A stretch of 64,000 nt of DNA from Candidatus Aenigmatarchaeota archaeon (GCA_016180945.1 JACPAG010000002.1:128210-192209), one strand, 5' to 3'; counted from the first letter of the stretch, positions 15,542 through 33,120 are shown. Program-made: numbers and translations. The notes: generated by a model not told the origin, from the letters alone.

Positions 15542-15640
15542 TTATAGTCATGCAAGAAAAGAATTGGTATAATACTTTCTTGCTGACTGTATGTAAAACC
15601 AGAAGTATTATATGTTTATTCTTTTCTGGTTTTACTATAA
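15542..15640 (-). mobile_element. Family B two-lobed palindromic element, minimal 99-bp form
   Basis: Terminal TTATAGT...ACTATAA; homologous to 19735-19933 and 32973-33120 but without the central insert. Confidence 0.75.
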
Positions 15641-15643
15641 ATG

Positions 15644-16063
15644 CTAAGATGGTGCTATGCAGCAATATGGCTTTGCTGTGTCATCATTGCAGCGGCCTAA
15701 TTCAACTGTGAGACCAGTTGTTGATTGGCTGCATAGACCTGCGCAATTTCCATTGTTAGCCTCGCATTCTGCCTTTGTTGTTATCTGCGGGCAGAACGTA
15801 GCACAGCACGCGCGTACAACGGGTGTTCCCAAGCTTTTGCATACCTTATTCAGTTCAGCCACATCTCCAGAAGGCGACCCTCTGCACTCCTTGTTGTTAG
15901 CCACATATTTGGTGCACAAATCTGCCCTTTGCCCTTCCATCTTTATCCTGTCTATTCCCGGATTCACGCTTGTCGAGAAGAAGAACAGCAGTGCCACAAG
16001 AACTATGACTGCTAAGACTATTATTACCGTTGTTTCTACCGGCAGCGAGATGCCCTTTTTCAT
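15644..16063 (-). CDS. Type IV pilin-like protein (class III signal peptide)
   Basis: MKKG|ISLPVE plus hydrophobic helix; Cys-rich head. Confidence 0.82.
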   Translation of the reverse strand: MKKGISLPVETTVIIVLAVIVLVALLFFFSTSVNPGIDRIKMEGQRADLCTKYVANNKECRGSPSGDVAELNKVCKSLGTPVVRACCATFCPQITTKAECEANNGNCAGLCSQSTTGLTVELGRCNDDTAKPYCCIAPS

Positions 16064-16154
16064 GAATATAATTAGCCGAGTGAATTAATAAAAGTATGAA
16101 GTTGGATGATAAGGTTGCTTGAGATGATAAGATAAATTTAATTAAATCAGATTT

Positions 16155-17540
16155 TCATACAGCTTTGCAGCCCTTGGGGACACTGCACACGGTACTTCCG
16201 AGTGTACATTCGCTGCAGCCGTCTCGAACGTCCCGTGTACATCTGTACTTTGTTATTTTCTCCTTGCAATCGCATCCCTCAATGGGCTTGTCAGCTTCTG
16301 CGGGGCATTTATCGCCAGTGCACTGATATTTGGTTTCAATAGGCACGCATGTCCACCCATCTATTGGAACAGCCGATTCCTTCTCCTCCGGGCATGTCCA
16401 TTTCTTTTCTATCCAGTTACCGCCAAAGGCGGTGCAGTAGCATTGCGACTCGTCTACGGCTTTGGAATCTTTAAACTTTGATTCGCCGCATCCAAAATCG
16501 CCGGCCCTGCCGCCGCATGTCAGTTTATTAGAGCCTATACCAGTTATATCTGTATCGCAGCTGTATATCCTGCCGCCGTCGCAGGCCATGTCGTTTGCCG
16601 ATGAGAACGTGAAAAGTTTTCCATTATTTTCCGTGCAGCTTAATGCCACCAGATAATCCTCTGCCTTAACAGTCACAGAAAACGGCTTTTTCTCGAATTT
16701 GTTTTCGTCCAGATAATGATAAAGCGCTTCCCTTTCTGAAAATTGCCCTTTTATTATGTAATGGAAAAGAAGGCCGGATAATGGCGGCAGGATACCGGCT
16801 TCTGTAGATGTAGCCACCAGCAATCCTGACGTTTCTACTGTAAACTTCTTTTCAAGGTCAGTTGAAATACCTTCAAATGTATTCTTAATTGAATTTTCTG
16901 CCTGTGATTTGTAAGTGTTGCTGTTAGAACTATAAGCTGGTATCTTCACATTCTCCGCCGTCTGGGTAAATAGTTTTCCTGCATCCAAAAGTTTTTTTAA
17001 CTGTATCAAAAAACTATATGTGTTATCAACCCTCTTTGGCGATTCTGTCGTCGGCTTTCTTTCATCGCCGGCAAAGGCTTTTAGGGTTCCCAGAACCTGC
17101 ACGATTATTTTAGAATCCTGAAGCGTAAATACGAGTGTTACACTGCTCCTCAATTTTATGCCGTCTACTTCGTCGACACTGTCGAAACCTTTATAGGATT
17201 TCGAAAGACTCGCCAGATATGCCTTTATTTCATCGTTACTAGGAATTTTACCAATCTGTGATCTATCCGCAGGGTTGATTTTGTACCAGAATTCGCTTCC
17301 AAAACCGCTTTGACCACCATCAAAGATTTGGCGCAAAGAAGAAAGATTCCATGTGACATTCAAAGACTTTTCCGCCAACAGAAGGGTATTCTTTGTCCTA
17401 AGCACTTCTACTTCTCCAAAGACGATATGCTGGTGCTTTAGCTTGTAAACTACAGCATCCTGGTAGAATAACCTTACAAGCATAAATAAAACAAAGACTA
17501 CCACTATGCCCAATACAACCCAGCCAGCACTACCCTTCAC
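16155..17540 (-). CDS. Large pilin-like surface protein with Cys-rich C-terminal domain
   Basis: MKG|SAGWVVLGIVVVFVLFMLV N-terminus; many Cys in the last ~160 aa. Confidence 0.72.
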   Translation of the reverse strand: MKGSAGWVVLGIVVVFVLFMLVRLFYQDAVVYKLKHQHIVFGEVEVLRTKNTLLLAEKSLNVTWNLSSLRQIFDGGQSGFGSEFWYKINPADRSQIGKIPSNDEIKAYLASLSKSYKGFDSVDEVDGIKLRSSVTLVFTLQDSKIIVQVLGTLKAFAGDERKPTTESPKRVDNTYSFLIQLKKLLDAGKLFTQTAENVKIPAYSSNSNTYKSQAENSIKNTFEGISTDLEKKFTVETSGLLVATSTEAGILPPLSGLLFHYIIKGQFSEREALYHYLDENKFEKKPFSVTVKAEDYLVALSCTENNGKLFTFSSANDMACDGGRIYSCDTDITGIGSNKLTCGGRAGDFGCGESKFKDSKAVDESQCYCTAFGGNWIEKKWTCPEEKESAVPIDGWTCVPIETKYQCTGDKCPAEADKPIEGCDCKEKITKYRCTRDVRDGCSECTLGSTVCSVPKGCKAV

Positions 17541-18417
17541 CTATCGTCACCACCAGTTTTTTCATCCTGTCTTTAAACAGCAACGGTATAGAAGCCTCTG
17601 CAGCAAAAGATTCCTCGTCAATTGCGCCCTTCCTTGCGAGGACATTCGTGCCCTCCTCTAAGACCGTGCTTAGCTTATCACAAATCTTGGGGTCTTCTGC
17701 ATCATCAAGAGCGCCTTTTGTGATGCCGAAATGCAGATGACAGCCAGCCTGTTTTTCCGCGCCGCAAGTGCTCACGTAACCTATCACCTCGCCCCTCTTT
17801 ACGTTTCGGGCCTTTCTATCAAGGATTTCAATGCAGCCGTAGAAGGACCGGTAGCCTCGCAATTCTTTCAAATCGCATATATCCTTATGCTCTATCTCAA
17901 GCCCTTCTTTGCCGCCGAATGCTGTGCCGCCAAAAACCTTGTCACCAGTTAGCCCCGGTCCTAATGTCGATAATCTCCCGCCGCAAATAGCTTTTACAGG
18001 TGTCCCGCAATTAGAAGAAATATCAGCGGCTTTATGGTCATTGCGAAAAGGCGTTGTACACGAAAGAGCAGATATACTGGCGCCTTCAAGCCGGACAATA
18101 TAAGGAAAATCGTAATTGTCTAGCAGTTCCTTAATGGCCTCTGAGGCTTTGGACAGCGTAGCTGCATCAACCTTTGTCATTGATGCAACAATGACAGGCT
18201 CCAAAAGAGGCTTGCCATCTATTTCTGAATTAACCAGAGTATTTGCTACAACGTAAGGTTTATTGAACGTTCCTATGACTTCTATGCCGCCTGCCCCAAA
18301 AAACTGCAGCGATATAACTGATACCACAAATATGACCAAAGATGCCACTATGGCTATAACGCTTACAACGGCTACAACCACGCCGACAAAGATTGGAAGT
18401 ACGGAGAATCCCTTCAT
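17530..18417 (-). CDS. Pilin-like protein with inserted M23 metallopeptidase domain
   Basis: MKG|FSVLP plus hydrophobic helix; HKAAD (HxxxD), GTPVKA, VKRGEVIGYV, HLHFGI (HxH). Confidence 0.8.
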   Translation of the reverse strand: MKGFSVLPIFVGVVVAVVSVIAIVASLVIFVVSVISLQFFGAGGIEVIGTFNKPYVVANTLVNSEIDGKPLLEPVIVASMTKVDAATLSKASEAIKELLDNYDFPYIVRLEGASISALSCTTPFRNDHKAADISSNCGTPVKAICGGRLSTLGPGLTGDKVFGGTAFGGKEGLEIEHKDICDLKELRGYRSFYGCIEILDRKARNVKRGEVIGYVSTCGAEKQAGCHLHFGITKGALDDAEDPKICDKLSTVLEEGTNVLARKGAIDEESFAAEASIPLLFKDRMKKLVVTIGEG

Positions 18418-18857
18418 TTTCCACAGCGCTCCACTTTCGTATCGTAAACACTCACTTTCAGGTTTGCAGGAAAGATGCCGTTTGAATGTATGTACACAGG
18501 AAGGGCAACAGAGAATACGTCATCCTTGCCGTTAAATCCGAATGACCATGAATTTTTATTATCCAGTTTCTGGGGAGATGTTACAGTAACATGATAAGCA
18601 TAGCAGTGCCTCACGGGCTCGGTTGACGCACCATCAAGCTCATTTAGTTTGCCGAGCAGCAACCCGCCGTTCCTTGAAATGTCGCTGTTCAGAAGATTTT
18701 CAGCTATCTCATATGTCGCTCTTCTGACAGCGTTATGCTCTATGCTTACTGATATGCGCGAGTTCATGAACGCAAGAAACAGCGGCGTGAGTATTACTAT
18801 CACAGCTATGAATACGAAGATTATTATCTCCGGTATGGACATTCTTGTCTCTGCCAT
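18414..18857 (-). CDS. Minor pilin-like protein (N-terminal anchor)
   Basis: MAETRMSIPEIIIFVFIAVIVIL; overlapping, operonic with neighbours. Confidence 0.65.
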   Translation of the reverse strand: MAETRMSIPEIIIFVFIAVIVILTPLFLAFMNSRISVSIEHNAVRRATYEIAENLLNSDISRNGGLLLGKLNELDGASTEPVRHCYAYHVTVTSPQKLDNKNSWSFGFNGKDDVFSVALPVYIHSNGIFPANLKVSVYDTKVERCGK

Positions 18858-18859
18858 TG

Positions 18860-19294
18860 TTATTCACACGGTTTTGTTTTTTGCGAAGCCTTTATCGTAT
18901 CAAGGCATCGCATGATATAAGCGGCGCCGTCCTTGCACTCCAGTTTTGCGGGTTCAATGCTCAGGGCTGTTTTTATTATGCCGCTTTTTGAAGATTGTCT
19001 TAGTGTAGTAAGTTTTAGCGTAGGAATCCATGGTTGTGATTGCACAGAAATCACAACATTATCAGGGCTTATCTCTACGGTGCAGTCCTTGTTCAGTTCA
19101 ACAACATGAAACGTCCCGCTCGGCGATGCCTGCAGAAGGTTTATTATGCCAGCTATCTCGTTCGCCCTCATAGATAGCTGCTGTTCCAGCGATTCGTTGG
19201 TTGTATCGAATAGGAGGCGGACCAAAAAGCCGACAAATATGACAAGCACGAGTATCAGCACTATTAACGTTACCAGCGTCATTCCTTTGGCCAT
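18860..19294 (-). CDS. Type IV pilin-like protein (class III signal peptide)
   Basis: MAKG|MTLVTLIVLILVLVIFVGFLV. Confidence 0.75.
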   Translation of the reverse strand: MAKGMTLVTLIVLILVLVIFVGFLVRLLFDTTNESLEQQLSMRANEIAGIINLLQASPSGTFHVVELNKDCTVEISPDNVVISVQSQPWIPTLKLTTLRQSSKSGIIKTALSIEPAKLECKDGAAYIMRCLDTIKASQKTKPCE

Positions 19295-19390
19295 GATTAT
19301 AATTGTAACGACTGGTTATTATCTTTTCACACCCCTCCGAAGCCCCTAGAAAGAATAAAAACAACCTAGACCATAAAGAATAATTAAAAA

Positions 19391-19519
19391 ATGATATCCA
19401 TGTTCCCTATTCCAATTGATCTTGCAAAAAAGTCTTTGATGTCCCTGATAATTTTATTTATCCTCGCATTGGTCGTATTGCACCTTATATCGGGCGCAGG
19501 AGGCGTATTCAAGTCATGA
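19391..19519 (+). CDS. Micro membrane protein, pilin-like (42 aa; not in ORF track)
   Basis: MISMFPIPIDLAKKS|LMSLIILFILALVVLHLISGAGGVFKS*; ATGA overlap with next ORF. Confidence 0.5.
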   Translation: MISMFPIPIDLAKKSLMSLIILFILALVVLHLISGAGGVFKS

Positions 19520-19677
19520 CATATAAGAAAGGTATCAGCATTCCGCCTAACCTGGCATTCTGGGTTATCGCGGGCCTGATAATGGCTTTTGTGGCACTTC
19601 TTGTATTACAAGGCCCTGTACTATCGAGCTTGCTCAAAGGCACCCCTCCGTCTATCTTCTCAATTATCCAGTCCTAA
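19516..19677 (+). CDS. Micro type IV pilin (53 aa; not in ORF track)
   Basis: MTYKKG|ISIPPNLAFWVIAGLIMAFVALLVL...; same KG|IS[LI]P motif as the pilins at 14544 and 15644. Confidence 0.75.
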   Translation: MTYKKGISIPPNLAFWVIAGLIMAFVALLVLQGPVLSSLLKGTPPSIFSIIQS

Positions 19678-19734
19678 AACCTAAGGAGAATGAAATTTCT
19701 AGGCTTACTTTATAATGATACTTATTTTAGTTAT

Positions 19735-19933
19735 TTATAGTGAAACCAGAAAAGAATCGGTATATTAATTTCTGGTTTTACATACACGCAAAAAGCAGAG
19801 CTTTTCTCTCAGAAACAGAAGTTTCTGGAGACTCAGGAAAGCTTTGCTTTCCTCGAGTTGGTGCACCAGAAAACTTTGTTTTCTGCGTGTAGTCAGCAAG
19901 GAAGTAATCCTTTATTTCCTTGCATGACTATAA
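19735..19933 (+). mobile_element. Family B element, 199-bp form with nested paired-hairpin inserts
   Basis: Same ends as 15542-15640; ~100 bp extra between CATAC and AGTCA. Confidence 0.75.
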
Positions 19934-19983
19934 CCATAGTTAATAGGAGAGGTCCTCCTTATATTGCTAGATGGCTGACAAAA

Positions 19984-20958
19984 ATGGATATGGGCATAGA
20001 AAAAGTTGTTGTGTATGTGGTCATCCTCCTTGTCTGCACTTACATAGCTGTTATTTTCATAACTTCTGTGCTGATACCAAAAAAAGTAGAAGCTGGAAAT
20101 ACAACAAAGATTGTAGACCGCGTTACCGGTTCATTGTGGTTTTCTAATGAACCGGAGATAGTTGTGAGAAGTAAAAAAATAAACGGCGAATTCGAATACA
20201 GCGTCGATGCATCAATCGGCATGCGGTTTGACGGCAAAACCGCCGAAGAAATTACCGCATTTCCCGTGGTTTCGTTTAAAGGCGCTAAAAACAGGGACGA
20301 CAAAGCTACTGATATCACAATAAAGAAAGGCGAAACAAAATATACAGCACTCAATTTCAAGCTGCGGAGCATGGAAAGGCCGATGATTATCAATGACAAG
20401 AGCACAGAATTCAGATGCGGATCTGATTTGTCGAAATGTCTTGTTTACGACAAGCAGAAGCTGTTGCTGAAAGACTTCTTCTTTTCATTTTCGGCTTTCC
20501 AGATAGTGCCTAAAATAGGGCCTTGCGTCCTGGTTTCGGAAATCCAGTGCCCCGGAGAAAAGAGGGTTGTTAATCTTAAGTTGGATGACGAAAAAGAGCC
20601 ATGCAATAGTCAGGAAGAGAAAAAAAACTGCGCCAAAACAGAAAAGATGTGCGGGACGCTTGCAAATATCCAGCTTGTTAAAATAGAGACGGATGAAAGC
20701 CTTCTGGAAAGAATATTGCCGGGATCGCCAAGCTGCGGCGACAAGGCATTTGCAGTCGATATTAGTGTAGGCAGTGTTGACAAAAACATTTTCGCCGGCA
20801 AGTTCGGATGGAAAATAGGGGAAGACATAACATTTGGTTTCTGGGAAAAGACTGATAAAAAAGACCCGGAAAACTGCTGGAGAGATGGTGGCGAAGGCTG
20901 CGCAGACCTGTACCTTGGCGAAAAGGTTGTCACCATCCCTGTAGAAAGTTATAAGTGA
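19984..20958 (+). CDS. Membrane-anchored surface protein, Cys-containing (pilin cluster)
   Basis: MDMGIEKVVVYVVILLVCTYIAVIFITSVL anchor; the upstream ORF-track extension runs through a repeat element. Confidence 0.7.
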   Translation: MDMGIEKVVVYVVILLVCTYIAVIFITSVLIPKKVEAGNTTKIVDRVTGSLWFSNEPEIVVRSKKINGEFEYSVDASIGMRFDGKTAEEITAFPVVSFKGAKNRDDKATDITIKKGETKYTALNFKLRSMERPMIINDKSTEFRCGSDLSKCLVYDKQKLLLKDFFFSFSAFQIVPKIGPCVLVSEIQCPGEKRVVNLKLDDEKEPCNSQEEKKNCAKTEKMCGTLANIQLVKIETDESLLERILPGSPSCGDKAFAVDISVGSVDKNIFAGKFGWKIGEDITFGFWEKTDKKDPENCWRDGGEGCADLYLGEKVVTIPVESYK

Positions 20959-20962
20959 TTTT

Positions 20963-21592
20963 ATGGGCGAAAAAACAGGCAACTTTGTCTTGCTTAAGGG
21001 CATGGCTATAAACATGTCAGTCCTGCTGATGGTCGTTCTTGTCGCGCTTGTTGTAATGTTTCTGCTGGCTGGTGTGTTCAAGGATTTTGTGTTCCAGCGA
21101 CAGGGTCTTTTCGGCCTGGTTCCGGGAACAGAAACAGTAACCGTGACAGACAGGGACACAAGCGAAATAGTCACGATTGACTGCAAGATTTTAACTGCCA
21201 GAAATCCTCCGGATGAATACGAATATAAGATAACATTTAACAAGGTAGGATTTGATTATACTTCCAAAGCCAAAGTATTCCCTGTTATTGGATTCAGAGG
21301 ATTAACAGCTGCGTCCCAGCCGGAAGAGGTCGAGATTCCAGAAAGAATAAGCTTCAGTTCGCTTCCTATAAGGTATAAATTAACAGGCGTTGATAATACA
21401 AAATTGACAGAATTCTACAATAACCAAACCAAGGAAACAAAAGAAACCGTATTGGTGGGATTTTTCAAACATGATGAAAAGTGCCTGGCTCTGGCCAAAG
21501 CTTCAGTCAGCTTAGACAGATTTGTTGACGAGTGCGCGAGGAAACTGGAAACTGCAACGAGTGTCGTAGCCACGCGCAAGGCTTGTGGTTGA
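20963..21592 (+). CDS. Pilin-like protein (class III signal peptide)
   Basis: ...LLKG|MAINMSVLLMVVLVALVVMFLLAGVF. Confidence 0.7.
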   Translation: MGEKTGNFVLLKGMAINMSVLLMVVLVALVVMFLLAGVFKDFVFQRQGLFGLVPGTETVTVTDRDTSEIVTIDCKILTARNPPDEYEYKITFNKVGFDYTSKAKVFPVIGFRGLTAASQPEEVEIPERISFSSLPIRYKLTGVDNTKLTEFYNNQTKETKETVLVGFFKHDEKCLALAKASVSLDRFVDECARKLETATSVVATRKACG

Positions 21593-21593
21593 T

Positions 21594-21740
21594 ATGTCTG
21601 AAGCGATGGAATTGCCTTTTGGCTTGTCATGGGAGGTTGTTGTCATGCTTATAGCTTTGGGGATAATGGCTATTATTATTTTCGGAAATCCGCAGTTCAT
21701 GGAACGCATAATGTCTTTCATCGGCGGAAGCCTAAGATAA
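21594..21740 (+). CDS. Micro membrane protein (48 aa; not in ORF track)
   Basis: MSEAMELPFGLSWEVVVMLIALGIMAIIIFGNPQFMERIMSFIGGSLR*; fills the gap in the operon. Confidence 0.55.
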   Translation: MSEAMELPFGLSWEVVVMLIALGIMAIIIFGNPQFMERIMSFIGGSLR

Positions 21741-21779
21741 AGGTTATTTAGTTCTGAAACAAATAAATATTCTGATTGC

Positions 21780-21920
21780 ATGCGCATGGAATACATACTG
21801 GTAGGATTGATTATAGCCCTGGTGGTTTTGCTAGCCCTGCTTGTATTAAGCGGCGGAATTGTTCCTGGATTCAAAGAAGGGTTGAAAAGCCTGGCGAATT
21901 TTGTCGGCATAAAGGTATAG
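21780..21920 (+). CDS. Micro membrane protein, pilin-like (46 aa; not in ORF track)
   Basis: MRMEYILVGLIIALVVLLALLVLSGGIVPGFKEGLKSLANFVGIKV*; stop 2 nt before next ATG. Confidence 0.6.
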   Translation: MRMEYILVGLIIALVVLLALLVLSGGIVPGFKEGLKSLANFVGIKV

Positions 21921-21922
21921 TC

Positions 21923-24520
21923 ATGAAAGGGTTCATTGAAGACACCATATTCATAGTTGTAGAAGTCGTCCTGATAGCTATTTTTGCTGTTCTGCTTTCC
22001 CGTGCTGTAGGAGCTGTCTTTAACCCGGACAAAGAGGTTGTTACTCTAAACACCGAACTTCTAAGATCAAAAATAAACGAGGCCTGCCAGTTTAAAGAAA
22101 ATGAGATAAAACTGGATAAATTCAATTTCCCGCAGCCCAAGCCGTCCAGAATTTTTGGCATAACAGATTTCCTGCCAACTTACTCCATATCCGGCTCAGG
22201 GGCTGCCGACCCGCACTACGTTCTATACTATGAATCCTTTCCGCCAGGCGAAGCCATAGGATGGGAGGCGTATCTCGATTTCGGTACACGCTTCATCGCG
22301 CCTTTTGATTATGCGAAATATACGAATTCGGACAAGCTTAAGGGCAAAAACAGTAAGATTACTGGTCCTGAAGTAGACAAGTTTTTCAAAAACGCAACGG
22401 CGTATGAGACAGAAGTAATATCAAAAGCCGAGAGCTTTACCGAATCAGAATTCGGCGAAGCAGGCACCGGTGCAATAATATCTTATATCGCCGACACGGA
22501 GCCTGATAAAGCAAGTCTCCCATGGGAAAAAATAGAATTGAACACCGGACCTGCGAAAAACACCCTAAAAGCGGATAAAGGCGAACTGGAGTTCAGAACG
22601 CCAATAGACGGTTCCGTTGTATTTCGAAGGCAGGAAAACGAATCATCGACAACTGCTTGGATGAAAGTAAAACTAAAGGTAGAAGAGGCCCGCAGGCTCG
22701 GAGGTTGGCCGTGGGAAGATAAAGGGGTTGAAAAGATTTTCATTTCTGTGAGCAATGCGCCTTATAGGGCTGACCTGATATTTAGGGAAGACAAAATAAT
22801 TCTTAGCGGAGAAGCAAGAAGCGAGGTTGAAATCAAGGCAAAAGATTACCATATCTACAAGCTTAAAATGAAGGACGGAGAGGTAACGGTTTCGGTTGAT
22901 GGCAAGCCCGAGATACAAGGAAAGAAAGCGAAGGCAGGGACGGGTAATGTATTTCTATTTGGCTCTGCGGACCCCGATAATCCGGCAAAAGGAAAGCGTG
23001 GCTCAACCGAATCGTATTGGGATTACATCAAATACTCCGGCACTGACGTAGAGCCTTCTGACATTGCAGAACAAAAATCAGAACTGGCGAAAAAGCCGGT
23101 GCTCATAAACAACATTATTCTTAGCGACAATCTTAATGTTATACCAACTGAAGAGCCTAAGCCGCCCGGTTCTGATATAACAAAATCCATAAAGCAACTG
23201 GGCAATGCCGGCGAATGGATTGGCAACCGCTTTGAATTCACAGACTACTTCGGCCTGACAAAAGAAGAGCGCGCCTACATAAAATATCTGCCTTGCGACG
23301 ATAATGCGCTGTGCCTGAAAACTCGTGACGCTGTCCAAAGGTTTAAACTGGATAATGCCTGCGCCGGTGCAAAATATATCCAGATGGTTTATGATGCAAC
23401 TGGATTAAAACCAGAAGATTTGATGCCTGCCGCCTATATAGCCGGTGATGTTGCCGGTCTTAAAGCCCTTTCAAAGGCGCAAGAAAGACTTGGCAACAAG
23501 GCAGCAGACGAGGCGTTTACTAAAAAATTTCTTGATACTACGCTTAGATTAGAAGGCAAAGACCCAAGTTTATTGAAGAAAGAAAATATTTTCAAATCCT
23601 TCTTCAAGGCGTTTGGCAGAAAATCTTTGGCAAAAACTGCCGGAAAATTTGCAGGACCGCTAAAATTTGTTCTAATCGCTGATATAATTGTTCATCAAGC
23701 CCCGGATCTTGCAAGAAGTGTAATGGAAGCAACACTCCGCTACAAGAATTCTGAGTTCTACATAGCAAGCCCTTGTCAGCTGAAAAGCGGTACAATTACG
23801 ATAAAATACGAAGCTAAGTGTCAGGACAAAGAAGAGCTATGTAGCGAGGGTATAACTTACCCGCTCTACAAATATGAGGTCGCACCAGATGGCACTAAAA
23901 CTATCGAAAATGTCGGCGACCATTTCATGTGCCTTGAAAGCGTCGGAAAAGACAAGGGCGAGTCAGAAGAATATAAAGAGAAATATAAGGAGGAAATTAA
24001 AGCAGATCCGCCAAATAAAGAAAATGTTCCTTGCATAAAAATAAAGATGGACGATGTCAAACGGGGCGATTTCTGCTGGACAAACAATCCTGTATTTCCA
24101 AAGAAGGGATTAATTGATAGACTTCAGAGTTTTGTCCCTGGAAAAACAGAAGCTTTGGATGCAATAATAGGTTGCGGCATCGGTACTCTAATCACAGCAC
24201 CGACAGTTGTTGGTATCTTTGCAGGTTGTGCTGCAGGTGCCGGTACTAGTCTTGCCGTAGATGAAGCAAGCAACATTTGGGGCGCTGTGACAGGTGAGAA
24301 GAGCCTAAAAGAGCATTTGTTTGTCCGTCTTGGCGGTCTTCCTGTCACAGAAGGCACGTCTTATCTGACAGTTTCGGATGAGGAGAAAAAAGCCGATCCA
24401 AATAAGTATCTTGAGGCAGTAGAAATGGGCCCTACTGACGTGATTGGCGGTTCTGCTGCAAAGCGGTTCGGCGAGGTTGCAAAAGACTTCTTCGAAATCC
24501 ACTGGGCATGGCCACGATAA
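21923..24520 (+). CDS. Giant pilin-like adhesin (865 aa) with ConA/LamG-like insert and glycine-zipper-like hairpin
   Basis: MKG|FIEDTIFIVVEVVLIAIFAVLL; beta-rich YHIYKLKMKDGEVTVSVDGK...YWDYIKY; AIIGCGIGTLITAPTVVGIFAGCAAGAG. Confidence 0.75.
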   Translation: MKGFIEDTIFIVVEVVLIAIFAVLLSRAVGAVFNPDKEVVTLNTELLRSKINEACQFKENEIKLDKFNFPQPKPSRIFGITDFLPTYSISGSGAADPHYVLYYESFPPGEAIGWEAYLDFGTRFIAPFDYAKYTNSDKLKGKNSKITGPEVDKFFKNATAYETEVISKAESFTESEFGEAGTGAIISYIADTEPDKASLPWEKIELNTGPAKNTLKADKGELEFRTPIDGSVVFRRQENESSTTAWMKVKLKVEEARRLGGWPWEDKGVEKIFISVSNAPYRADLIFREDKIILSGEARSEVEIKAKDYHIYKLKMKDGEVTVSVDGKPEIQGKKAKAGTGNVFLFGSADPDNPAKGKRGSTESYWDYIKYSGTDVEPSDIAEQKSELAKKPVLINNIILSDNLNVIPTEEPKPPGSDITKSIKQLGNAGEWIGNRFEFTDYFGLTKEERAYIKYLPCDDNALCLKTRDAVQRFKLDNACAGAKYIQMVYDATGLKPEDLMPAAYIAGDVAGLKALSKAQERLGNKAADEAFTKKFLDTTLRLEGKDPSLLKKENIFKSFFKAFGRKSLAKTAGKFAGPLKFVLIADIIVHQAPDLARSVMEATLRYKNSEFYIASPCQLKSGTITIKYEAKCQDKEELCSEGITYPLYKYEVAPDGTKTIENVGDHFMCLESVGKDKGESEEYKEKYKEEIKADPPNKENVPCIKIKMDDVKRGDFCWTNNPVFPKKGLIDRLQSFVPGKTEALDAIIGCGIGTLITAPTVVGIFAGCAAGAGTSLAVDEASNIWGAVTGEKSLKEHLFVRLGGLPVTEGTSYLTVSDEEKKADPNKYLEAVEMGPTDVIGGSAAKRFGEVAKDFFEIHWAWPR

Positions 24521-26005: not shown

Positions 26006-26006
26006 A

Positions 26007-26663
26007 TCATTTCACTAAATCAAGAGCAACCCTGAACTTCTTTACCTCTTTTCCGTTTATAGAATCGGTTTTTGTGCCTTTGTTTTCAAGAAGAATGGAA
26101 CCGGAACTTGCTGATTTTGAGTCGCCTGTCAGGTCTATTTTGGACGACTGGGTGCCTTCCGTATTCAGCTGGATAAATTTCAGCGTATAGGTGGTCACGT
26201 AATTATCGCCTGTCTTGTCGCTGCTTACGCATACCGTCTGCGGCTCGTCCTGGTATGCAATCCCCTCGTTGGGCGTGCACGCGTTCCTGCCCAGTGCTAT
26301 GAAACCGCCCGGCGAATAGATTGTGCCCGATGTGCCTGATATTTCCAGTAGCAATATCTTGGATACGCTGTCAAATGACATTGTCATCTTTATTGCAGGC
26401 GAAGGCGATTGTGGCAGCTCTACAGAAGCCCTGGTACGTGACTGGTCATTGACGACCTCCTTTATTTTATCAGCCAAGCCGTTCATGAATTTCTCAGAAC
26501 TCTCTAGAACCGATACAGCTTCGCTTTTCCTCAGAAATGGCTCGCCCCATACAAAAACAGTTATTGCAACGCCAATCATAAGCATAGTGAGAGCGCCTGC
26601 GGTAAGCGGCTCTATGATACCCCGTTTATATTTCCTAGACCGCATGGAGAAAGGCATAGCCAT
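26007..26663 (-). CDS. Pilin-like protein (class III signal peptide), paralog of 25191-25814
   Basis: ...KYKRG|IIEPLTAGALTMLMIGVAITVFVWGEP. Confidence 0.8.
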   Translation of the reverse strand: MAMPFSMRSRKYKRGIIEPLTAGALTMLMIGVAITVFVWGEPFLRKSEAVSVLESSEKFMNGLADKIKEVVNDQSRTRASVELPQSPSPAIKMTMSFDSVSKILLLEISGTSGTIYSPGGFIALGRNACTPNEGIAYQDEPQTVCVSSDKTGDNYVTTYTLKFIQLNTEGTQSSKIDLTGDSKSASSGSILLENKGTKTDSINGKEVKKFRVALDLVK

Positions 26664-26743
26664 CTTTAGAAATTATGGTGAAGCTGATTAATAAATATGT
26701 TTCAATGTGTTCAAACATCATATGATAAGAGGTAGGGTGGAAA

Positions 26744-26862
26744 ATGATATGCTCTGATATAACCCCTGACTAAAGTCAGGGGTTTCCTTGAGCATGGCAT
26801 CCCAACATTGTTTGTGTATTATCTACCGACTAAAGTCAATAGTTTTAAACGATGTTGAGGAT
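26744..26862 (+). mobile_element. Family D two-lobed palindromic element, short form
   Basis: ATGATATGCTCTGATATA-ACCCCTGAC-TAAA-GTCAGGGGT-TTCCTTGAGCATGGCA shared with 48246-48522. Confidence 0.75.
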
Positions 26863-27101
26863 CACATCTTCCTTATATACCACCGACTAATTCACGGAGA
26901 GCAGAACTCTCCTGAATTCCGCAGAAACCTCTGGTTTCTGACGGAAAGTCGGTGGTTTGCAAGACATCGAAGAACAAAATGTTCTTCGTTGTCTGCACGG
27001 AAGGAACTCCGTTCCTTCCTGTGTGAGAAGATGGGATCCAGATGAACATTGTATTTCATCCATGGTCTAAAGACCATGGTTTTCAATGTCCATCTTAGAT
27101 A
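26861..27101 (+). mobile_element. Family C element, 241-bp form with two paired-hairpin inserts
   Basis: Backbone nearly identical to 31230-31350; 56-bp insert at 26889-26944 and 64-bp insert at 26960-27023. Confidence 0.8.
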
Positions 27102-27231
27102 AACCTCTGCCTCGGTCTTGCCTACCTGGGTTTTTAGGCAAGTCGGAAATAAAGAGAGGTTTCATTATTTAATAAATATGTAGACTGAATGCAACCATCT
27201 ACTTCCCTAAGCCTGCTAATTAAAGAAAGTA

Positions 27232-27639
27232 TCACGCCATAGGAGCCTGCGCCAGAGGCCTGCGAAGTTTGGTTCTGGCCATGCTTGTCAACAAAACCGA
27301 ATTCACCCTTTTCTCCAGCTTCGAGAGCCTTTCGTCAACCTTTTTTTCCAGTTCCTGACTAGGTTCACCTTCTCCGCCCGAAAACTCTATCCGTTCCATG
27401 AAATTGTTTATCTTGGCGGTCAGCTCGCTGACATTGTTAAGAAGGTCCGTGACCTTTTTCATCATTTCCGAATTTATTTTTACCATCTCGTCTATGACGC
27501 TCTGGTTCGCGCGGACTATTTCGATAAGCTCGCGCGTTGTTTCCAGCGACGAACCTGTCCGCTCCACTTTCTCCAGCCGCCTTTCCAGCCGCCTTACCGG
27601 ACCTAGCGGAACAATCTCGTACTCCTCTTCCTCGCTCAT
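27232..27639 (-). CDS. Hypothetical coiled-coil protein
   Basis: MSEEEEYEIVPLGPVRRLERRLEKVE...; heptad pattern. Confidence 0.7.
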   Translation of the reverse strand: MSEEEEYEIVPLGPVRRLERRLEKVERTGSSLETTRELIEIVRANQSVIDEMVKINSEMMKKVTDLLNNVSELTAKINNFMERIEFSGGEGEPSQELEKKVDERLSKLEKRVNSVLLTSMARTKLRRPLAQAPMA

Positions 27640-27981
27640 ATTAACTATATTTCCTTGTTTGGTATATAAAGTTTTTCGGCCAAAAACCTGAGGTGATTTG
27701 ATGGAGTGTCCTGTTTGCAAGCAAAGGATGATAAAGGTGGGATAGAAGCCCTAGTCGAATCCGCAAAAAGTCGCGGCGAATCAGAAGGATTTGCCAAGAG
27801 CTTGTGGTCACATTACCATTAGTTTAGATAGGATAAACTAATTTTTCGGCGTGGAAAACCGCTAGTACTCCGGCTTGATCATGCATAAGGTATACCTAAA
27901 GTAAGAAATCCTACACTTCTTCTATGTACGCTTGTCACAGTTTCGTTTTTTAAACTAGCCATTCTTCACAACTCAAATTAT

Positions 27982-29643
27982 TTACTCTTCCATTCCATTC
28001 ATGCCGCCCATTCCGCCGGCTCCCGGTGGCATACCGCCCGGCATTCCGCCGCCTCCGGACTTGGCCGTGATGATGTCGTCTATTCTTAGAATCATTTCGG
28101 CAGCTTCTGTTGCTGATTTTATTGCCTGCGTCTTGATTTTCAGCGGCTCGATGACATTAAGCGTTTCCATGTCAGCCGCAGTCCCGTTTATGACGTCAAC
28201 GCCGTAGGCTTTTTTGCCTTTTTCATGCAGCGTTCTCAGCTCGACCAGAATATCTATCGGGTCCTTGCCGGTGGATTCTGCAAGCGTGCGCGGTATTATT
28301 TCAACGGCCTCGGCAAATGCGTTTATAGCCAACTGTTCGCGCCCGCCTACTGTTTCTGCGTATTCCCTCAGTCTGCGCGCAAGTTCTATTTCAATTGCCC
28401 CGCCGCCCGGCACGACCTTGCCGACCTCCAGTGCGCTCATAACGCCCAGGACGGCGTCGTCCATCGCGCGCTTCACCTCGTCGACCACATGTTCTGTCCC
28501 GCCGCGGACTAATATCGAAACTGCTTTCGGGTTCTTGCAGTCCCGCACAAAAATCATTTCTTCGCCGGCTAATTTCAGCTCCTCGACAAGGCCGGCTTCT
28601 CCCAGGTCTTTGGGCGTAAGCTCGTCAACGCTTGAGACGATGCTGCCGCCTGTTGCCTTGGCCATCTTTTCCATGTCGCTTTTCTTGACCCTTCTGACAG
28701 CGGCTATTTTTTCCTTGGCCAGGTAGTGCTGCGCCAGATCGTCTATGCCCTTCTGGCAGAAGAGAACATTGCAGCCGGAAGCTACGACCTTCCTGGTCAT
28801 ATCTTTCAGCATCTTGCTTTCCTGGTCCAGGAACGCCTGCAATTGGTCAGGGCTTGTTATTCTGATTTCGGCGTTTGTTTCTGTTTCCTTGACCTCCAAT
28901 GCCGCATCCAGCAGTGCAATCTTGGCGTCTTTGATCTTCTTCGGCATGTTGGAATGGACTATTTCCTTGTCGATGACCAGCCCTTTCACCAGTTCCGTGT
29001 CGTCAATGGAGCCGCCCTGCTTCTTTTCGATTTTAACGTCATCCTTGTTTATTTTTATCTTGCCGTTCTCCGTCTCTGAAACCATTCTGACTGCATCCAC
29101 GGCCAGCTCAGCCAGCGATTCCTTGGCAGCCTCGCTTCCCTTGCCTGTCATCGCCGTCATTGCAATCTTGGCCAGCGTCTTTGCATCGTTTATGGTAACA
29201 TGCTGGCCAAGGCCATCAAGAATTTCCAGCGCCTTGCTCTTCGCAAGCCTGTAACCGCGCAGAATAACAGTCGGATGTATCTCCTGTTCTAATAGGTCTT
29301 CAGATCTCTTCAGCAGCTCGCCGGCAAGCACAACCGCCGTTGTCGTGCCGTCGCCTACCTCTTCTTCCTGTGTCTTCGCGACCTCGACAAGCATTTTTGC
29401 GGCAGGGTGCTCTATCTCCATCTCGCTTAGAATAGTAGCGCCGTCATTCGTTATAGTGACGTCGCCGATAGTGTCAACCAGCATTTTGTCCATGCCCTTC
29501 GGCCCTAACGTAGTTCTGACAGATTCAGAAACAGCCTTAGCCGCAGCAATGTTCCTTGATTGCGCGTCACGGCCTGTAGTCCTTAGCGTCCCTTCGGGTA
29601 AAATAAAGATTGGTTGTCCCCCTAATTGTCCGATATTTGCCAT
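27982..29643 (-). CDS. ths: Thermosome (group II chaperonin) subunit
   Basis: [31 protein letters not shown]-terminal GGM tail. Confidence 0.98.
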
Positions 29644-29724
29644 ATTCCATCCACCTCGATTTTATAGTTTTTAATCTCCGGTTTTCCCGGAAGAAATGCA
29701 ATTTTCTTTTGCCAGCTTTTCAAA

Positions 29725-29755
29725 ACAACTAGACGCACATCAGTGCGTCAGGTTG
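29725..29755 (-). repeat. Family E hairpin repeat
   Basis: CTGACGCAC-N4-GTGCGTCTAGTTGT on the reverse strand; copies at 42995 and 47761. Confidence 0.65.
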
Positions 29756-29807
29756 CCAAAAGCTGGTATACTTCCATACACAGCTATTGTGCAAAAGTTT
29801 AAAAAGG

Positions 29808-30695
29808 TTAGCCTCTCTTAAGAAGTTTTCGCAGCTCCCTGGCGCTGCTCAGTTCACGGAGCTCTTTTTCTTTTATAGACGGCACGTCCAGAGAAGTTTC
29901 CTCTTTTGTTACGGCAAGAACCGGCATTTTTGCGGTTTTTGAAAACCTGAGAAGCCCTGATTCGTTTTTTTCCAGATATTCGTTGTCGCCGGCCTCTGAC
30001 AGCACGATAAACCTTTCCCTCGCTATGATATTAAATGGCGTCTGGTACACCAGTTCCGTTTCAAACCCCAGCTTGTTCATGTCCCGCGAAACGTGCATTT
30101 CAAAGGCATTTTTCGCGTCGTTTGGTTTCACATTCAGCTGAAAGTCGCTCAAAGAAAAATGTTCCATGATGCTGGCTCCAAGGGCCTTTTCCATTTTCTG
30201 CGCTGTCGTATATTCAGTATTTGCAGTACTGCGCTCATGCTCGTATACGCTTTTTTTTGTTATTTGTGCCTTGTCGGCTAACGCCCTCTGCGTCAGCTTT
30301 TCTTTTGCCCTGCCCTCCCTAAGCTTCTCTGCGTTCACTTTTACAAAAAAACCGCCGCGAAACCTGTAAAGGAAAGGGAGTTCCCTGAAAACCAGTATGT
30401 TTTCCAGCGTTTTCGGGGTTACTGTAGGAATTTCAAATCTGTCGTAGATGACACCGTTTTCCAGCGTTTCCCGCCTGGTTCTCTGCCCTATTACGAGCGC
30501 CGTGGCAGAAAGAGTCGTTGAAAGTATTTTGAGATTGTTTGCTTGGCTGAACTGCAGAGAATCGACGTTGCCCAATAATTTTAAAAGAACCATGTCCCTT
30601 TTTTTCCTGCCAACTACGTCAAAGCAGCCCGAATATTCCGAATAGTCATACTGTGCCTCTTCCAGTATGCTTATTACCTCTTCCCTGATTTCCAT
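29808..30695 (-). CDS. Archaeal Cro/C1-HTH transcriptional regulator (COG1395-like)
   Basis: CFDVVGRK..LLKLLGNVD, FYRFRGG-type segment, LTQRALA...SVYEHE HTH. Confidence 0.82.
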   Translation of the reverse strand: MEIREEVISILEEAQYDYSEYSGCFDVVGRKKRDMVLLKLLGNVDSLQFSQANNLKILSTTLSATALVIGQRTRRETLENGVIYDRFEIPTVTPKTLENILVFRELPFLYRFRGGFFVKVNAEKLREGRAKEKLTQRALADKAQITKKSVYEHERSTANTEYTTAQKMEKALGASIMEHFSLSDFQLNVKPNDAKNAFEMHVSRDMNKLGFETELVYQTPFNIIARERFIVLSEAGDNEYLEKNESGLLRFSKTAKMPVLAVTKEETSLDVPSIKEKELRELSSARELRKLLKRG

Positions 30696-30749
30696 AATCA
30701 GAGTTAGTCTGCAAAGATTTAAAATGTTATAAATGCATTTCTTAAGGTC

Positions 30750-31014
30750 GGGCCGGTAGCTCAGTATCCATCCCTTTCTTTCAAAAGAAAGGTCTGGATC
30801 AACCCCAAAGAAATATGGAAAATATTATCTTCCATAGGAACATGGGGTTGATAAGGGCGAGAACCCTAGGTTCTTGCACTTATTGGGAATTGGTAGACTT
30901 CGGCGAGATGTTTGTTGCCGAAGTTCTCGTAAGAGCACTAGTCTTATACGACAGCTGAGCTGAAAAATAATCTAAGATAACTAGCGGTCGAGAGTTCGAT
31001 CCTCTCCCGGCCCA
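30750..31014 (+). tRNA. tRNA-Ile(UAU) with canonical 37/38 intron (30949-30978) and large hairpin-rich D-loop insert(s)
   Basis: Acceptor GGGCCGG/CCGGCCC, A73; anticodon arm CTAGT-CT-TAT-A^A-ACTAG; BHB central helix CTTA/TAAG; T arm GAGAG-TTCGATC-CTCTC. Confidence 0.85.
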
Positions 31015-31090
31015 TTTAGGCTTTTCTTTTTAGAAAAAAGAAAAGACCTATGGAAAAGAAAAAATAATATTGGATATGACGCAACATAAC

Positions 31091-31122
31091 ATAATATGGC
31101 AATCGACTTGCGAAGCAAGGGG
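31091..31122 (+). repeat. Family G element, minimal form
   Basis: ATAATATGGCAATCGA-CTTGC-gaa-GCAAG-GGG. Confidence 0.65.
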
Positions 31123-31229
31123 ATATATACAAAGCAAAACCGATATCTATTTATACCGTATAAAATCAACTTTGATTTAGAAATATTTCAAAGGTGATAA
31201 AAATGGCAAAGAAAAAAAAGAGATAAGTA

Positions 31230-31350
31230 ATCACATCTTCCTTATATACCACCGACCAAAGTCGGTGGTTTGTGAGAAGATGGGATCCAGATGAACATTG
31301 TATTTCATCCATGGTCTAAAGACCATGGTTTTCAATGTTCATCTTAGATA
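31230..31350 (+). mobile_element. Family C element, minimal 121-bp form
   Basis: ATCACATCTTCCTTATATA-CCACCGAC-caaa-GTCGGTGG...CCATGGTC-TAAA-GACCATGG-TTTTCAATG...CTTAGATA. Confidence 0.8.
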
Positions 31351-31354
31351 ATCA

Positions 31355-31759
31355 TCAAAAAAATCTGGTCCTGCCAATTTTTCTTTTGTTTTCTCTTCTC
31401 CATGTAACCGAAATCTTCTGTTCGTGTCTTCTCCAGTTTCTTTTCCGTGACAAAACAAATCTCCTTTCGACTGCAGTCGCAACCCTGTGAGCCTCCCTGT
31501 CTACGTCAAAACCGTATTTTTTTGACACGTATTTTTCGACGCATTCGTGGACTAGCACCGGAAGCAAATCCTGTTTTTCGACATACCTGCTCACATAAAT
31601 TATATTCTTGTGCCTGTTCCAGTCTGCAACGTTTTTTTCATGAATTAATTTAAAGCGGTATGCTATTTTCTTCCTGAGAAAAAACATGGAAACTGTTTTG
31701 CCGTTGATTTTGACGCTGCTCACGCTCTCGGAAGAAAGTCTTTTTATCAGCGGTGCCAT
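31355..31759 (-). CDS. Hypothetical basic protein with HExxE...H motif
   Basis: LVHECVEKYV...EAHRVA. Confidence 0.6.
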   Translation of the reverse strand: MAPLIKRLSSESVSSVKINGKTVSMFFLRKKIAYRFKLIHEKNVADWNRHKNIIYVSRYVEKQDLLPVLVHECVEKYVSKKYGFDVDREAHRVATAVERRFVLSRKRNWRRHEQKISVTWRRENKRKIGRTRFF

Positions 31760-31802
31760 ATTAATTATTTGTCTGGTTTATAAATATTTTCTCTGTCAGA
31801 AG

Positions 31803-32327
31803 CTATGCTCTTTTCTTTGAGAAAATAGAAATAAATCTTCCTTCATAAAGGAGTTTAACAACTTCCTCGGGAGAAAATATGCGCCCGTTCATGCAGACAT
31901 AAATTCCCGGTTTTAGTTCCTGAACTTTTGCAACCGAGTAGCCAAGATTAAACGGTGCATCAGAAGGTGCAAATCCTATTAAGGGAATCAGAGAACCCGT
32001 AAAGACTATTGTCTGGTCATTTCTCTTCAGTCCTGACTTTAGGTATTTTGCAGTATCCGGCATCGCATAGGTCCCGTGTGTGATGATGATCTTTTTATGG
32101 GGGCTATTTTGGATGACCTTTAAAATATTTTCCATGTCGTGTTGATTCATGGCTCTGCTGTCCTTCATGCAAACTTCTGTAAATTCTGTTTTTTCGTGGA
32201 GCTTTAGGCTCTTTATGAAAGAAGGAATGCCTGAACGCTCAGCGGGGACTGCGGTGTCTCTGGTCCCGTCATAAACAGAATCTATGGTCCCTCCTGTAAT
32301 TACAAAATGTATTATCTCGTTTCCTAT
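31803..32327 (-). CDS. Stand-alone asparaginase N-terminal-domain protein (no in-frame ATG before the first motif; possible ATA start)
   Basis: In-frame upstream extension IHFVITGGTIDS, then MKDS, ITHGTYAM, GSLIP, DAPFNLG. Confidence 0.78.
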   Translation of the reverse strand: MGNEIIHFVITGGTIDSVYDGTRDTAVPAERSGIPSFIKSLKLHEKTEFTEVCMKDSRAMNQHDMENILKVIQNSPHKKIIITHGTYAMPDTAKYLKSGLKRNDQTIVFTGSLIPLIGFAPSDAPFNLGYSVAKVQELKPGIYVCMNGRIFSPEEVVKLLYEGRFISIFSKKRA

Positions 32328-32361
32328 AAATCTATCATTCTGATAGAGTTTTTAAATAGAA

Positions 32362-32841
32362 TCAGCCCTGGTAATACGCCTTCCTTGTCTTGAATTCAAG
32401 GGTTTCCCAGTTCGTGGAAAGCTTCTTGCAGACCTTGCCAAGTTCAGTCCCTAATTCACTGTTCCAGAAGTCCCACGTCTTTCTTATCCAGTCCAGCGTT
32501 TGCTTTTCGTTCGGCCTTACGATAAGCAGGTTGTTCTCCCATTTGAGGACCTGTAGTTTTTTGTAAATAGCGAATAAAGTTTGACGCTCTTCCTTTGTTA
32601 CCATGTTCTGCTCTACCATGGACGCAAAACAATCAGAGCCCGCTACTATAGGCTCCAGAATCCGCTCTGTGAATGAAAAAAGCCTCTCGGAAATCTCCGT
32701 CCTGATGTGGTCGAATATTTCATTCTCGTCTTCGATGTCGAACTTGAACGTTTCCCTTAATTGTGTGAGATGCGGCAGGTTGAATTTCTCCTGCGCCTTC
32801 CTGTATCGCTCAATAATTTCGGGGTTCATCGTAATAACCAT
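32362..32841 (-). CDS. Hypothetical helical protein
   Basis: Clean ORF MVITMNPEIIERYRKAQEKFNLP... Confidence 0.65.
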   Translation of the reverse strand: MVITMNPEIIERYRKAQEKFNLPHLTQLRETFKFDIEDENEIFDHIRTEISERLFSFTERILEPIVAGSDCFASMVEQNMVTKEERQTLFAIYKKLQVLKWENNLLIVRPNEKQTLDWIRKTWDFWNSELGTELGKVCKKLSTNWETLEFKTRKAYYQG

Positions 32842-32972
32842 GATATGGAAACTATAAAAGTGTTTGTATCGTTCTTTTGTGGGATTAAGTAAACTGAAAT
32901 GCTGATAAGGCAAAAATTTTGGGTTTTGTCCAGAACAAAATATTTCATCTTCGCTGCATACCTATTTTGACT

Positions 32973-33120
32973 TTATAGTGAAACAAGAAAGTAATACCAT
33001 ACTACAGCTTGTTTCACAGACACCCAAAAAGCAAAGCTTTTTGGTGCACCAGAAAACTTTGTTTTCTGCGTGTAGTCACCAAAGGTATAGTATCCTGATT
33101 ACCTCTTTGGATGACTATAA
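32973..33120 (+). mobile_element. Family B element, 148-bp form with one paired-hairpin insert
   Basis: TTATAGTGAAAC...ATGACTATAA ends; 52-bp insert ACCCAAAAAGC...CTGCGTGT. Confidence 0.75.

Follow-up and report, generated by a model that had tools for sequence, protein, structure and literature searches.

Twin-hairpin cassettes nested in a miniature transposable element family of a Candidatus Aenigmatarchaeota archaeon

REPINs are doublets of REP sequences which form hairpins and are mobilised by bacterial RAYT transposases (Bertels and Rainey 2011, PMC3116915). In this work we have investigated a repeat family, family B, and the short twin-hairpin cassettes carried by its copies in a 64,000-nt stretch of DNA from Candidatus Aenigmatarchaeota archaeon (GCA_016180945.1 JACPAG010000002.1:128210-192209), referred to below as the window. 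Family B copies differ in length by steps of about 50 bp, and we found that these steps are not growth of family B as such but a separate class of twin-hairpin cassettes, which is spread genome-wide and also nests in other repeats. Like REPINs, the cassettes consist of an inverted pair of short imperfect palindromes in one unit that can fold as a single long hairpin; they too are extragenic and present in hundreds of copies, the doublet is the repeated entity, and excision is exact. Unlike REPINs, they are not accompanied by a RAYT or Y1 gene, no conserved REP sequence and no GTAG/CGTC tag was seen, their stems vary freely, with compensatory changes, and they nest in one another as well as in other repeats; the unit measures only 52 nt, and the host is archaeal. 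Membership of the cassettes in the REPIN/RAYT or PATE families is not supported, although by analogy they may work in a similar way.

Three other systems are close enough to be compared. Nostoc punctiforme reportedly carries hairpin repeats of 21-27 nt, SDR1-8, with compensatory changes, and these are said to lie inside minitransposons and inside their own copies in complex nested insertions. We know of no enzyme for the SDR elements. The cassettes resemble them in behaviour only, and we know of no sequence relationship; Nostoc belongs to another domain of life, and here the quantum is a mirrored hairpin pair and the sites are hairpin junctions and loops. IS200/IS605 elements and PATEs insert and excise exactly and without target duplication, as is found for the cassette T1 described below. 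The end hairpins of IS200/IS605 elements act as single-stranded DNA, and such elements occur in this clade, with a relic in the host genome; no constant target tetranucleotide, however, can be defined for the cassettes. Lastly, rRNA is said to have grown by accretion that left insertion fingerprints. There too, new helices stand at the loops and junctions of older ones, which remain undisturbed, and the result is a layered, self-similar structure. In rRNA this is a slow pattern within one functional RNA, whereas here it is found in a DNA repeat of many copies, in which gains and losses are recent.

Coordinates without a contig prefix refer to the window. The host genome (G000; 0.99 Mb in 9 contigs, C1, C2 and so on) is a metagenome-assembled genome (MAG) which is 84% complete, and the comparison set comprised 41 genomes of relatives, none of the same genus. 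H1 and H2, the two frame hairpins of family B, were counted genome-wide by profile searches, and copies in relatives were extracted by a BLAST-guided search. The adjoining mevalonate-pathway genes fit an archaeal host.

Family B as a miniature transposable element with discrete length classes

A first-pass annotation of the window had described three copies of family B, of 99, 148 and 199 bp, with shared TTATAGT...ACTATAA ends and two compensated stems. All three are present where it had placed them (Table 1). The pattern of these ends with a spacer of 60-90 nt occurs once in the window, at the 99-bp copy, against a chance expectation of 0.00; the two minus-strand copies were found by end-motif searches together with reading of the sequence. 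Written in the orientation of the element, a copy has the layout T-TA-TAGTCA, H1, TGACTA / TATGTAAAACC, H2, GGTTTCACTA-TA-A, and the flanks of the junction between the two hairpins, ..TGACTA / TATGTAAAACC, are the most conserved stretch of the frame. Covariation was tested on nine short copies from the whole genome, which were aligned and folded, with 500 shuffles and slid pairing partners as controls. The two compensated stems were borne out: 94.8% of cells are paired, 7 of the 28 pairs have changed on both sides, and the covariation score of 0.242 was reached by none of the 500 shuffles (0.114 ± 0.016) and compares with at most 0.099 for the slid partners. Helix 1 contributes 15 pairs, five of them compensated and 97% of its cells paired; helix 2 contributes 13 pairs, of which two are compensated.

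Does the family really come in steps? The host genome holds 22 H1 and 20 H2 modules, which make up 20 complete copies of family B and some fragments, among them truncated copies at C2:20337 and C8:181400. In eleven copies of 96-104 bp the junction is empty and H2 follows directly after H1. Two copies of 146-148 bp carry 52 nt between H1 and H2, five copies of 199-211 bp carry exactly 105 nt and one copy of 260 bp carries 162 nt. The twentieth, of about 152 bp, has an empty junction and a different hairpin pair, of 54 nt, in the loop of H1. Thus, 19 of the 20 copies have an insert of 0, 52, 105 or 162 nt at one base-exact site. The claim of growth in steps of about 50 bp could have failed on a continuous length distribution, better explained by deletion from a long ancestor; the genome-wide tabulation instead gave discrete classes. 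In an assembly made independently from the same population (Logan, SRR12113422), contig L083 is identical at every base to H1 and half of the insert in the 148-bp copy, and stops at the centre of the cassette T1, GGTGCA|CC. This was the one contig returned by a Logan lookup with four flanking genes, the other three genes giving no match.

Family B is a non-autonomous MITE (miniature inverted-repeat transposable element), probably of the IS630/Tc1-mariner type. Its dispersed copies are numerous, 96-260 bp long and devoid of an open reading frame (ORF), with the ends TAGT(C/G)..(C)ACTA; all are flanked by TA, mostly as T-TA..TA-A, and the TA target usually lies within TTAA. One clean case of insertion comes from the relative G004, where a repeat that we call host-X is uninterrupted in L044, L045 and L047 (..GCGCGTTAATACGAC..) and in L063 reads ..CGT-TA-[TAGTGG..CACTA]-TA-ATACGAC.., that is, family B lies inside host-X and the TA is duplicated. 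Another relative, G005, has a complete TA-flanked element of the IS630 family (L079:893-2022, on C27) encoding a 347-aa protein with HTH_32/33 and DDE_3 domains. Its left end reads TTATAGCT.. / TTATAGCTAACC.. and its right end ..ATTATTTACTTGGCTAGCTATAA / ..GAATTATTTACTTGGCTAGCTATAA / ..AGCTATAA; counted by eye, the right end and that of family B in G004 (TGATTATTTACTTGGTTCACTATAT) share 20 of 25 positions, with an exact 13-mer among them. This element is likely to be an autonomous relative of family B. A search for DDE_3 gave no match in G000 or in G004, and the transposase of family B may lie in an unassembled part of the genome or may have been lost.

In its TA duplication, short terminal inverted repeats, length of 100-260 bp and absence of an ORF, family B is comparable to the Stowaway-like MITEs of the IS630/Tc1-mariner group, as it is in its bursts of near-identical copies and in having ends like those of an IS630-type element of a relative. 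It differs from them in that an autonomous partner was found neither in G000 nor in G004, the genome with the burst, and in its interior, where two compensated hairpins form a landing pad for cassettes. In G004 we also saw MITEs nested in MITEs: an element of about 90-125 nt with ends ..TATAG..CTATA.. lies in the H2 loop of five copies (L049, L065, L066 and L067), with a duplication ATAATA/TATA, and family B is itself nested in a larger repeat, GGTGAATTGCACTGG^GTCCTGATATTATTTGCAATTCACC.

In the host genome, copies of family B lie in both orientations in convergent, divergent and tandem gene contexts. Often the whole spacer between two genes is a copy of family B, as for the 99-bp and 148-bp copies of the window and for those at C2:43188, C2:96385, C2:29658 and C7:3589. 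In four copies the terminal TTATAG supplies the TAG stop codon of the upstream gene, and outward-facing, TATA-like ends stand 17-43 nt ahead of several start codons. It may be that family B ends serve as portable promoter or terminator signals.

Cassettes T1, T2 and T3 and their genome-wide class

The 148-bp copy had been annotated with a 52-bp hairpin pair inserted between CA(T/G)AC and AGTCA, and this pair, T1, is indeed there, exactly between ...TGACTA and T(A/C)TGT.... It consists of two mirrored hairpins of 26 nt, each with a 3-bp clamp (CAC/GTG), a 1-nt bulge, an 8-bp stem and a 3-nt loop; in the second hairpin the bulge is on the 3' instead of the 5' side and the loop is TTT instead of AAA, and T1 as a whole is 81% identical to its own reverse complement. 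Removal of T1 at ACTA^TATGT recreates the empty junction base for base (filled ACTA[..]TATGT, empty ACTATATGT). Its borders show neither a target duplication nor a direct repeat, and its orientation is constant within family B. Two simple origins for these borders were considered and ruled out, a TA duplication since empty sites retain TATA rather than a single TA, and slippage between direct repeats since the borders have none.

The further pair which had been described as nested in the insert of the 199-bp copy was also found. This copy holds the same T1 pair, and T2, a pair of 52/53 nt, lies inside the second T1 hairpin at CACCAA^AAAAGC. T2 is built like T1 but with the clamps CTC/GAG. In the 260-bp copy the first T2 hairpin in turn bears at its loop a third cassette, T3, of about 57 nt (AAGCAATGAGC..GGTGCATCGGAGAATC..CCGCTTGC). 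The borders of T2 and T3 are ambiguous by 1-4 nt. The idea that T2 is a T1 copy inserted into T1 was rejected, since their identity of 71-73% is within the upper range of the background for cassettes in general (median 59%; 90th percentile, 74%).

The same build recurs throughout the genome. A simple scan found 220 adjacent pairs of perfect hairpins in the genome and 8 in shuffled sequence, and we put the number of cassettes at about 190-220 per genome. The spans of the pairs peak at 44-48 nt, which becomes about 52 nt once the clamps are added, and the spacers between paired hairpins are palindromic (TGCA, GTGCAC, GAGTCTC). The unit of about 26 nt comprises a clamp of 2-3 bp, a 1-nt bulge, a stem of 7-9 bp and a loop of 3-5 nt, and two mirrored units make one cassette of 52-57 nt; the clamps differ by subfamily (CAC/GTG, CTC/GAG, GCA/TGC, TACA/TGTA). 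ATG-ORFs of 120 aa or more cover 79% of the genome but contain only 34 of 189 cassettes, most of these at the edges of the ORFs. Twin hairpins were also seen mid-way in two long ORFs, at C8:83759-83831 (443 aa) and C5:33502-33550 (418 aa).

Cassettes of family B recur in hosts outside it. Copies of T2, 91-94% identical, are found at C2:33736 and C7:172873, where they occupy the equivalent CAA^A of an unrelated hairpin, CAAAGACC; this hairpin is empty at four other loci. T3 is found in three different hairpins with an AAAGC loop, namely T2a of family B, the CGAAAAGC cassette and the GAAGAAAGC cassette, always in the same orientation, and each of these hosts has known empty versions. Three kinds of site have been observed so far: CTA^TAT at the H1/H2 junction, the loops of hairpins and, within a stem, CAA^A. 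As a separate observation, the host hairpin CCACCGGTC..GACCGGTGG holds one cassette hairpin or a twin at C1:5204 and C4:1-70 (CAG versus CACCAAAGAGCTTTGCTCTTTGCGTG), so that single units of 23-26 nt can differ between copies too. Positions 10640-10715 of the window hold three stacked cassette-type hairpins, CACAAGCAGAATG..CATTCTGCTGTGCAGCAGAAGC..GCTTCTGCTTGCA, CGCTTTTGCCGAGCAAAAGGG, where neither ARAGORN nor Rfam calls a tRNA.

Table 1. Positions in the window of family B copies, their frame hairpins and cassettes
Feature	Position	Strand	Remarks
Family B copy, empty form, 99 bp	15542-15640	+	T-TA-[TAGTCA..H1..TGACT]G-[TATGTAAAACC..H2..GGTTTTACTA]-TA-A
H1 frame hairpin of 99-bp copy	15542-15589	+	left end TATAGTCA pairs with internal TGACTGTA; inner stem GCAAGAAA/TTTCTTGC
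H2 frame hairpin and right terminus ACTATAA of 99-bp copy	15590-15640	+	stem GTAAAACCAGAA/TTCTGGTTTTAC
Family B copy, two-level insert, 199 bp	19735-19933	-	in divergent intergenic spacer
Composite insert, 105 nt, T2 nested in T1	19785-19889	-	at GACTA^TATGT; 95-98% identical to inserts of four other copies with diverged frames
Cassette T2, 52/53 nt	19806-19857	-	CTCGAGGAAAGCAAAGCTTTCCTGAG T CTCCAGAAACTTCTGTTTCTGAGAG; in 5' arm of second T1 hairpin, CACCAA^AAAAGC
Family B copy, one cassette, 148 bp	32973-33120	-	AA_kinase gene start (33142) 21 nt past left end
Cassette T1, 52 nt	33021-33072	-	CACGCAGAAAACAAAGTTTTCTGGTG + CACCAAAAAGCTTTGCTTTTTGGGTG, at TGACTA^TCTGTG
T3-type cassette	43061-43107	+	nested in loop of CGAAAAGC hairpin of another twin cassette
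Stand-alone twin cassette, same build	46299-46346	+	ACACGCGAAGACC..GGTGCATCGAAGAAC..GAATGT; non-family-B context

Gain and loss of cassettes

Were the filled copies produced by gain, or the empty ones by loss? In the five copies of 199-211 bp the 105-nt insert has a mean identity of 0.97, whereas H1 is 62-78% identical (mean 0.68) and H2 74-90% (mean 0.81). As the insert is near-identical in five differently framed copies, it was gained or lost as one block, from 0 to 105 nt. The nearest frames of filled copies belong to empty ones: C4:79967 (105-nt insert) is closest to C4:103691 (97%), C4:91621 (162 nt) to C8:193546 (97%), C7:173889 (105 nt) to C5:680 (90%) and C7:3587 (52 nt) to C2:96385 (92%). 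The state of the junction has therefore changed at least 4-5 times after the frames diverged. The first-pass annotation had read the three window copies as direct evidence of iterative, nested insertion. Its nested, modular architecture and the quantum of about 50 bp stand, and insertion is the better supported direction; the three copies as stages of one lineage do not stand, because the composite moves as a block and the frames of the window copies are only 74-83% alike (74% between the 148-bp and 199-bp copies). The label of direct evidence was too strong, as the 105-nt block travels as a unit and precise loss is probable in G004.

The same junction is filled in other genera, and by different cassettes. 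Cassettes of the T1 type occupy it in G000, G004, G005 and G026, those of a TACATGG..CCATGTA type in G003 and G004, and those of a TCTGCGAAG..GGGGA type in G004; in G005 the centre of T1 contains another, nested hairpin pair. The site in the H1 loop, G(A/G)T^ATTAC, is filled in G000, G004 and G012, and different genera have a four-hairpin composite in common. A young family in G004 comprises about 37 copies with 95-100% identity. About 31 matches include the cassette, of which 22 filled copies are read through, and six copies are without exactly 52 nt, the junction being GCTA[52 nt]TAAGTG when filled and GCTATAAGTG (GCTA/TAAGTG) when empty, with no border repeat.

We conclude that there have been repeated insertions of cassettes and that a composite moves as one block. 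Three findings speak for insertion rather than for decay from a long ancestor: the different cassettes at one junction across genera, the cassettes in unrelated hosts which also have empty forms, and the asymmetry in age between insert and frame. A single long ancestor cannot explain this asymmetry together with the relationships of empty and filled frames and the unrelated cassettes in other genera. Our preferred reading, which we think probable without being confident of it, has two layers: family B is an IS630/Tc1-mariner MITE, and its steps are twin cassettes of bulged hairpins which have been inserted repeatedly. Family B would spread whole, along with any cassettes it carries. The cassettes would enter spots which are single-stranded in the folded host element, namely the H1/H2 junction, the loops of hairpins and the CAA^A position of a stem, and they would nest in one another, after which the composites would act as one block. 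Gain and loss of T1 would be exact to the base, without target duplication or footprint. Our best guess is that a structure-directed enzyme acts on folded single-stranded DNA in a peel-and-paste manner, like HUH/Y1 transposases on REPINs; the mirrored palindromes, the junction, loop and stem sites and the scar-free T1 recall the single-stranded DNA chemistry of REPINs and IS200/IS605 (PMC3116915). The main alternative needs no transposase: a cassette would be copied in while a break at a hairpin tip or junction is repaired. A second route without a transposase would be conversion between copies.

Several points weigh against repeated insertion. Five copies in G004 are nested in a larger repeat and share identical outer flanks, yet three are filled (L044, L047 and L072), one is empty (L061) and one is partly deleted (L075, G004:C3:203500-203840), with 19 central T1 bases gone (TTTTCCGGTGCACCAAAAA). 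As the flanks are identical, loss is the simpler reading there, the direction of change in G004 reads most simply as loss, and exact, scar-free loss of cassettes probably occurs. The deletion at the palindrome centre in L075 suggests that, as DNA, the cassette forms a single long hairpin, and it indicates that breaks at a tip or junction do occur. A direct repeat of 4 nt, GCAA, stands at the borders of T3 and would permit deletion by slippage. A composite with T2 in a hairpin is conserved across genera in other contexts, and this could be a sign of function rather than mobility. All genomes compared are MAGs. The stems are too varied for a sequence-specific transposase, which would not tolerate such variation, and the hairpins of the IS200 elements of the clade, CCACCG..CGGTGG (L032, L033), resemble family A repeats of G000 and are unlike H1, H2 and the cassettes. 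A search with PF01797 found in G000 only a sub-threshold relic of 58 aa (C4:20707-20793), and the element-rich genomes G003, G004 and G012 have no match to Y1, reverse transcriptase, TnpB or DDE_3.

The relic is the C-terminus of an IS200-type TnpA (..GHLWNHSYYVDSVGDNTYGILEGYVRNQ with a stop / ..HLWNHSYYVDSVGDN..), followed by a right-end hairpin, CCACCGCCTTTAGGCGGTGG, which resembles the CCACCG..CGGTGG hairpins of the family A repeat. PF01797 also gave no match in the element-rich G005, as in G003, G004 and G012, and no TnpB was found in G000. Y1_Tnp is present at full length in eight relatives and, relics included, is matched in 8 of 12 element-rich genomes and 4 of 29 others (Fisher p=0.0016, phylogeny ignored). 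Reverse transcriptase is similarly but more weakly enriched (p=0.03), and its enrichment alongside Y1 suggests a general effect of genomes rich in mobile DNA, for which reason the Y1 association is retained only as a lead. Both enzymes were rejected as candidate drivers of the cassettes: RAYT/IS200, since G000 has only the relic, G003, G004 and G012 have none and the IS200 hairpins are unlike the cassettes; and reverse transcriptase, since the sole one in G000 (C8:69-1346, minus strand, a 426-aa open frame at the contig start) has motifs like those of diversity-generating retroelements (IGNLTSQFFANVYL, YVDDFV) and most element-rich genomes lack the enzyme.

Other explanations and meaning

Could one or a few entries of cassettes have been enough, with gene conversion, or gap repair with template switching after cuts by the transposase, between MITE copies doing the rest? 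Repair from homologous copies is known for cut-and-paste transposons of the Tc1/IS630 type. Conversion would give base-exact, scar-free events both ways; the junction is flanked by the most conserved stretch of the frame, and the constant orientation of T1 in family B fits as well. The hosts of T2 and T3 outside family B, however, share few bases with the family B site, the unrelated cassettes at the same junction elsewhere are left unexplained, and in G000 both ends of a conversion tract would need to fall in the roughly 6-15 conserved bases that flank the insert on either side. We therefore regard such shuffling of modules as unlikely.

Decay would start from an ancestor of at least 260 bp, the shorter classes arising through repeated precise deletion of unstable hairpin pairs. 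It draws on the filled, empty and centre-deleted copies with identical flanks in G004, on the direct repeats at the borders of T3 and on the truncated copies in G000; moreover, H1 is invariant in the six empty copies of G004 and more varied in the filled ones, as if the empty form were the younger. Against it stand the unrelated cassettes at one junction in different genera, the same cassettes in unrelated hosts with empty forms too, the greater uniformity of the 105-nt insert than of the frames around it, and the borders of T1, where slippage would not rebuild CTA|TATGT exactly in the absence of a repeat. Decay as the general explanation is improbable in our view.

It is also doubtful, to a slightly greater degree, that family B and the cassettes are transcribed as functional structured RNA with stabilising, terminating or regulatory hairpins, whose added arms would correspond to the expansion segments of rRNA, either tolerated or selected. 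The pairing is strong and compensated, the folds are very stable (199-nt copy, z = -9.8; 148-nt copy, z = -6.6), the four-hairpin composite is kept across genera and copies span whole stop-to-start spacers. The sole match in an Rfam scan of the 64-kb window was a tRNA-Val, family B and the cassettes having none, and copies face either way in every kind of gene context. To multiply in a burst at unrelated loci, with near-identical copies and a duplicated TA, is how a transposon behaves. Template switching at the level of DNA creates and maintains hairpins and can also yield compensation, which could explain compensated stems without selection on RNA (PMC8794818).

Birth of the hairpin pairs in situ, through template switching in replication and inverted copying of a neighbouring hairpin, a process documented for hairpins (PMC8794818), would suit both a cassette that is a near-palindrome of two palindromes, as T1 shows, and the resemblance of T2 to T1, but we hold it to be very improbable, since this resemblance falls within the upper background of cassettes, copies of T2 and T3 at distant loci and in other hosts are 91-98% identical and so need transfer, and the closest relatives of nested cassettes are largely elsewhere in the genome and not in their own neighbourhood.

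Returning to repeated insertion, we suggest, quite tentatively, that the cassettes might form a new class and the smallest archaeal mobile DNA known, recognised by shape rather than sequence and entering single-stranded tips and junctions of folded DNA without a scar, through a structure-specific enzyme or through transposase-free break-and-copy repair, with self-similar accretion as the outcome. If this is true, non-coding DNA would grow by self-similar accretion, as is thought for rRNA. If recognition by shape is true, the cassettes would offer a tractable system for the cutting and rejoining of hairpin DNA in archaea and for the stepwise building of complex folds. For practical work, cassettes break short-read assemblies and can mislead the calling of ORFs and RNA genes in these MAGs. 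The reduced genomes of DPANN archaea are thought to shed non-coding DNA, whereas here we find hundreds of structured repeats, about 1% of the genome, nested in transposons.

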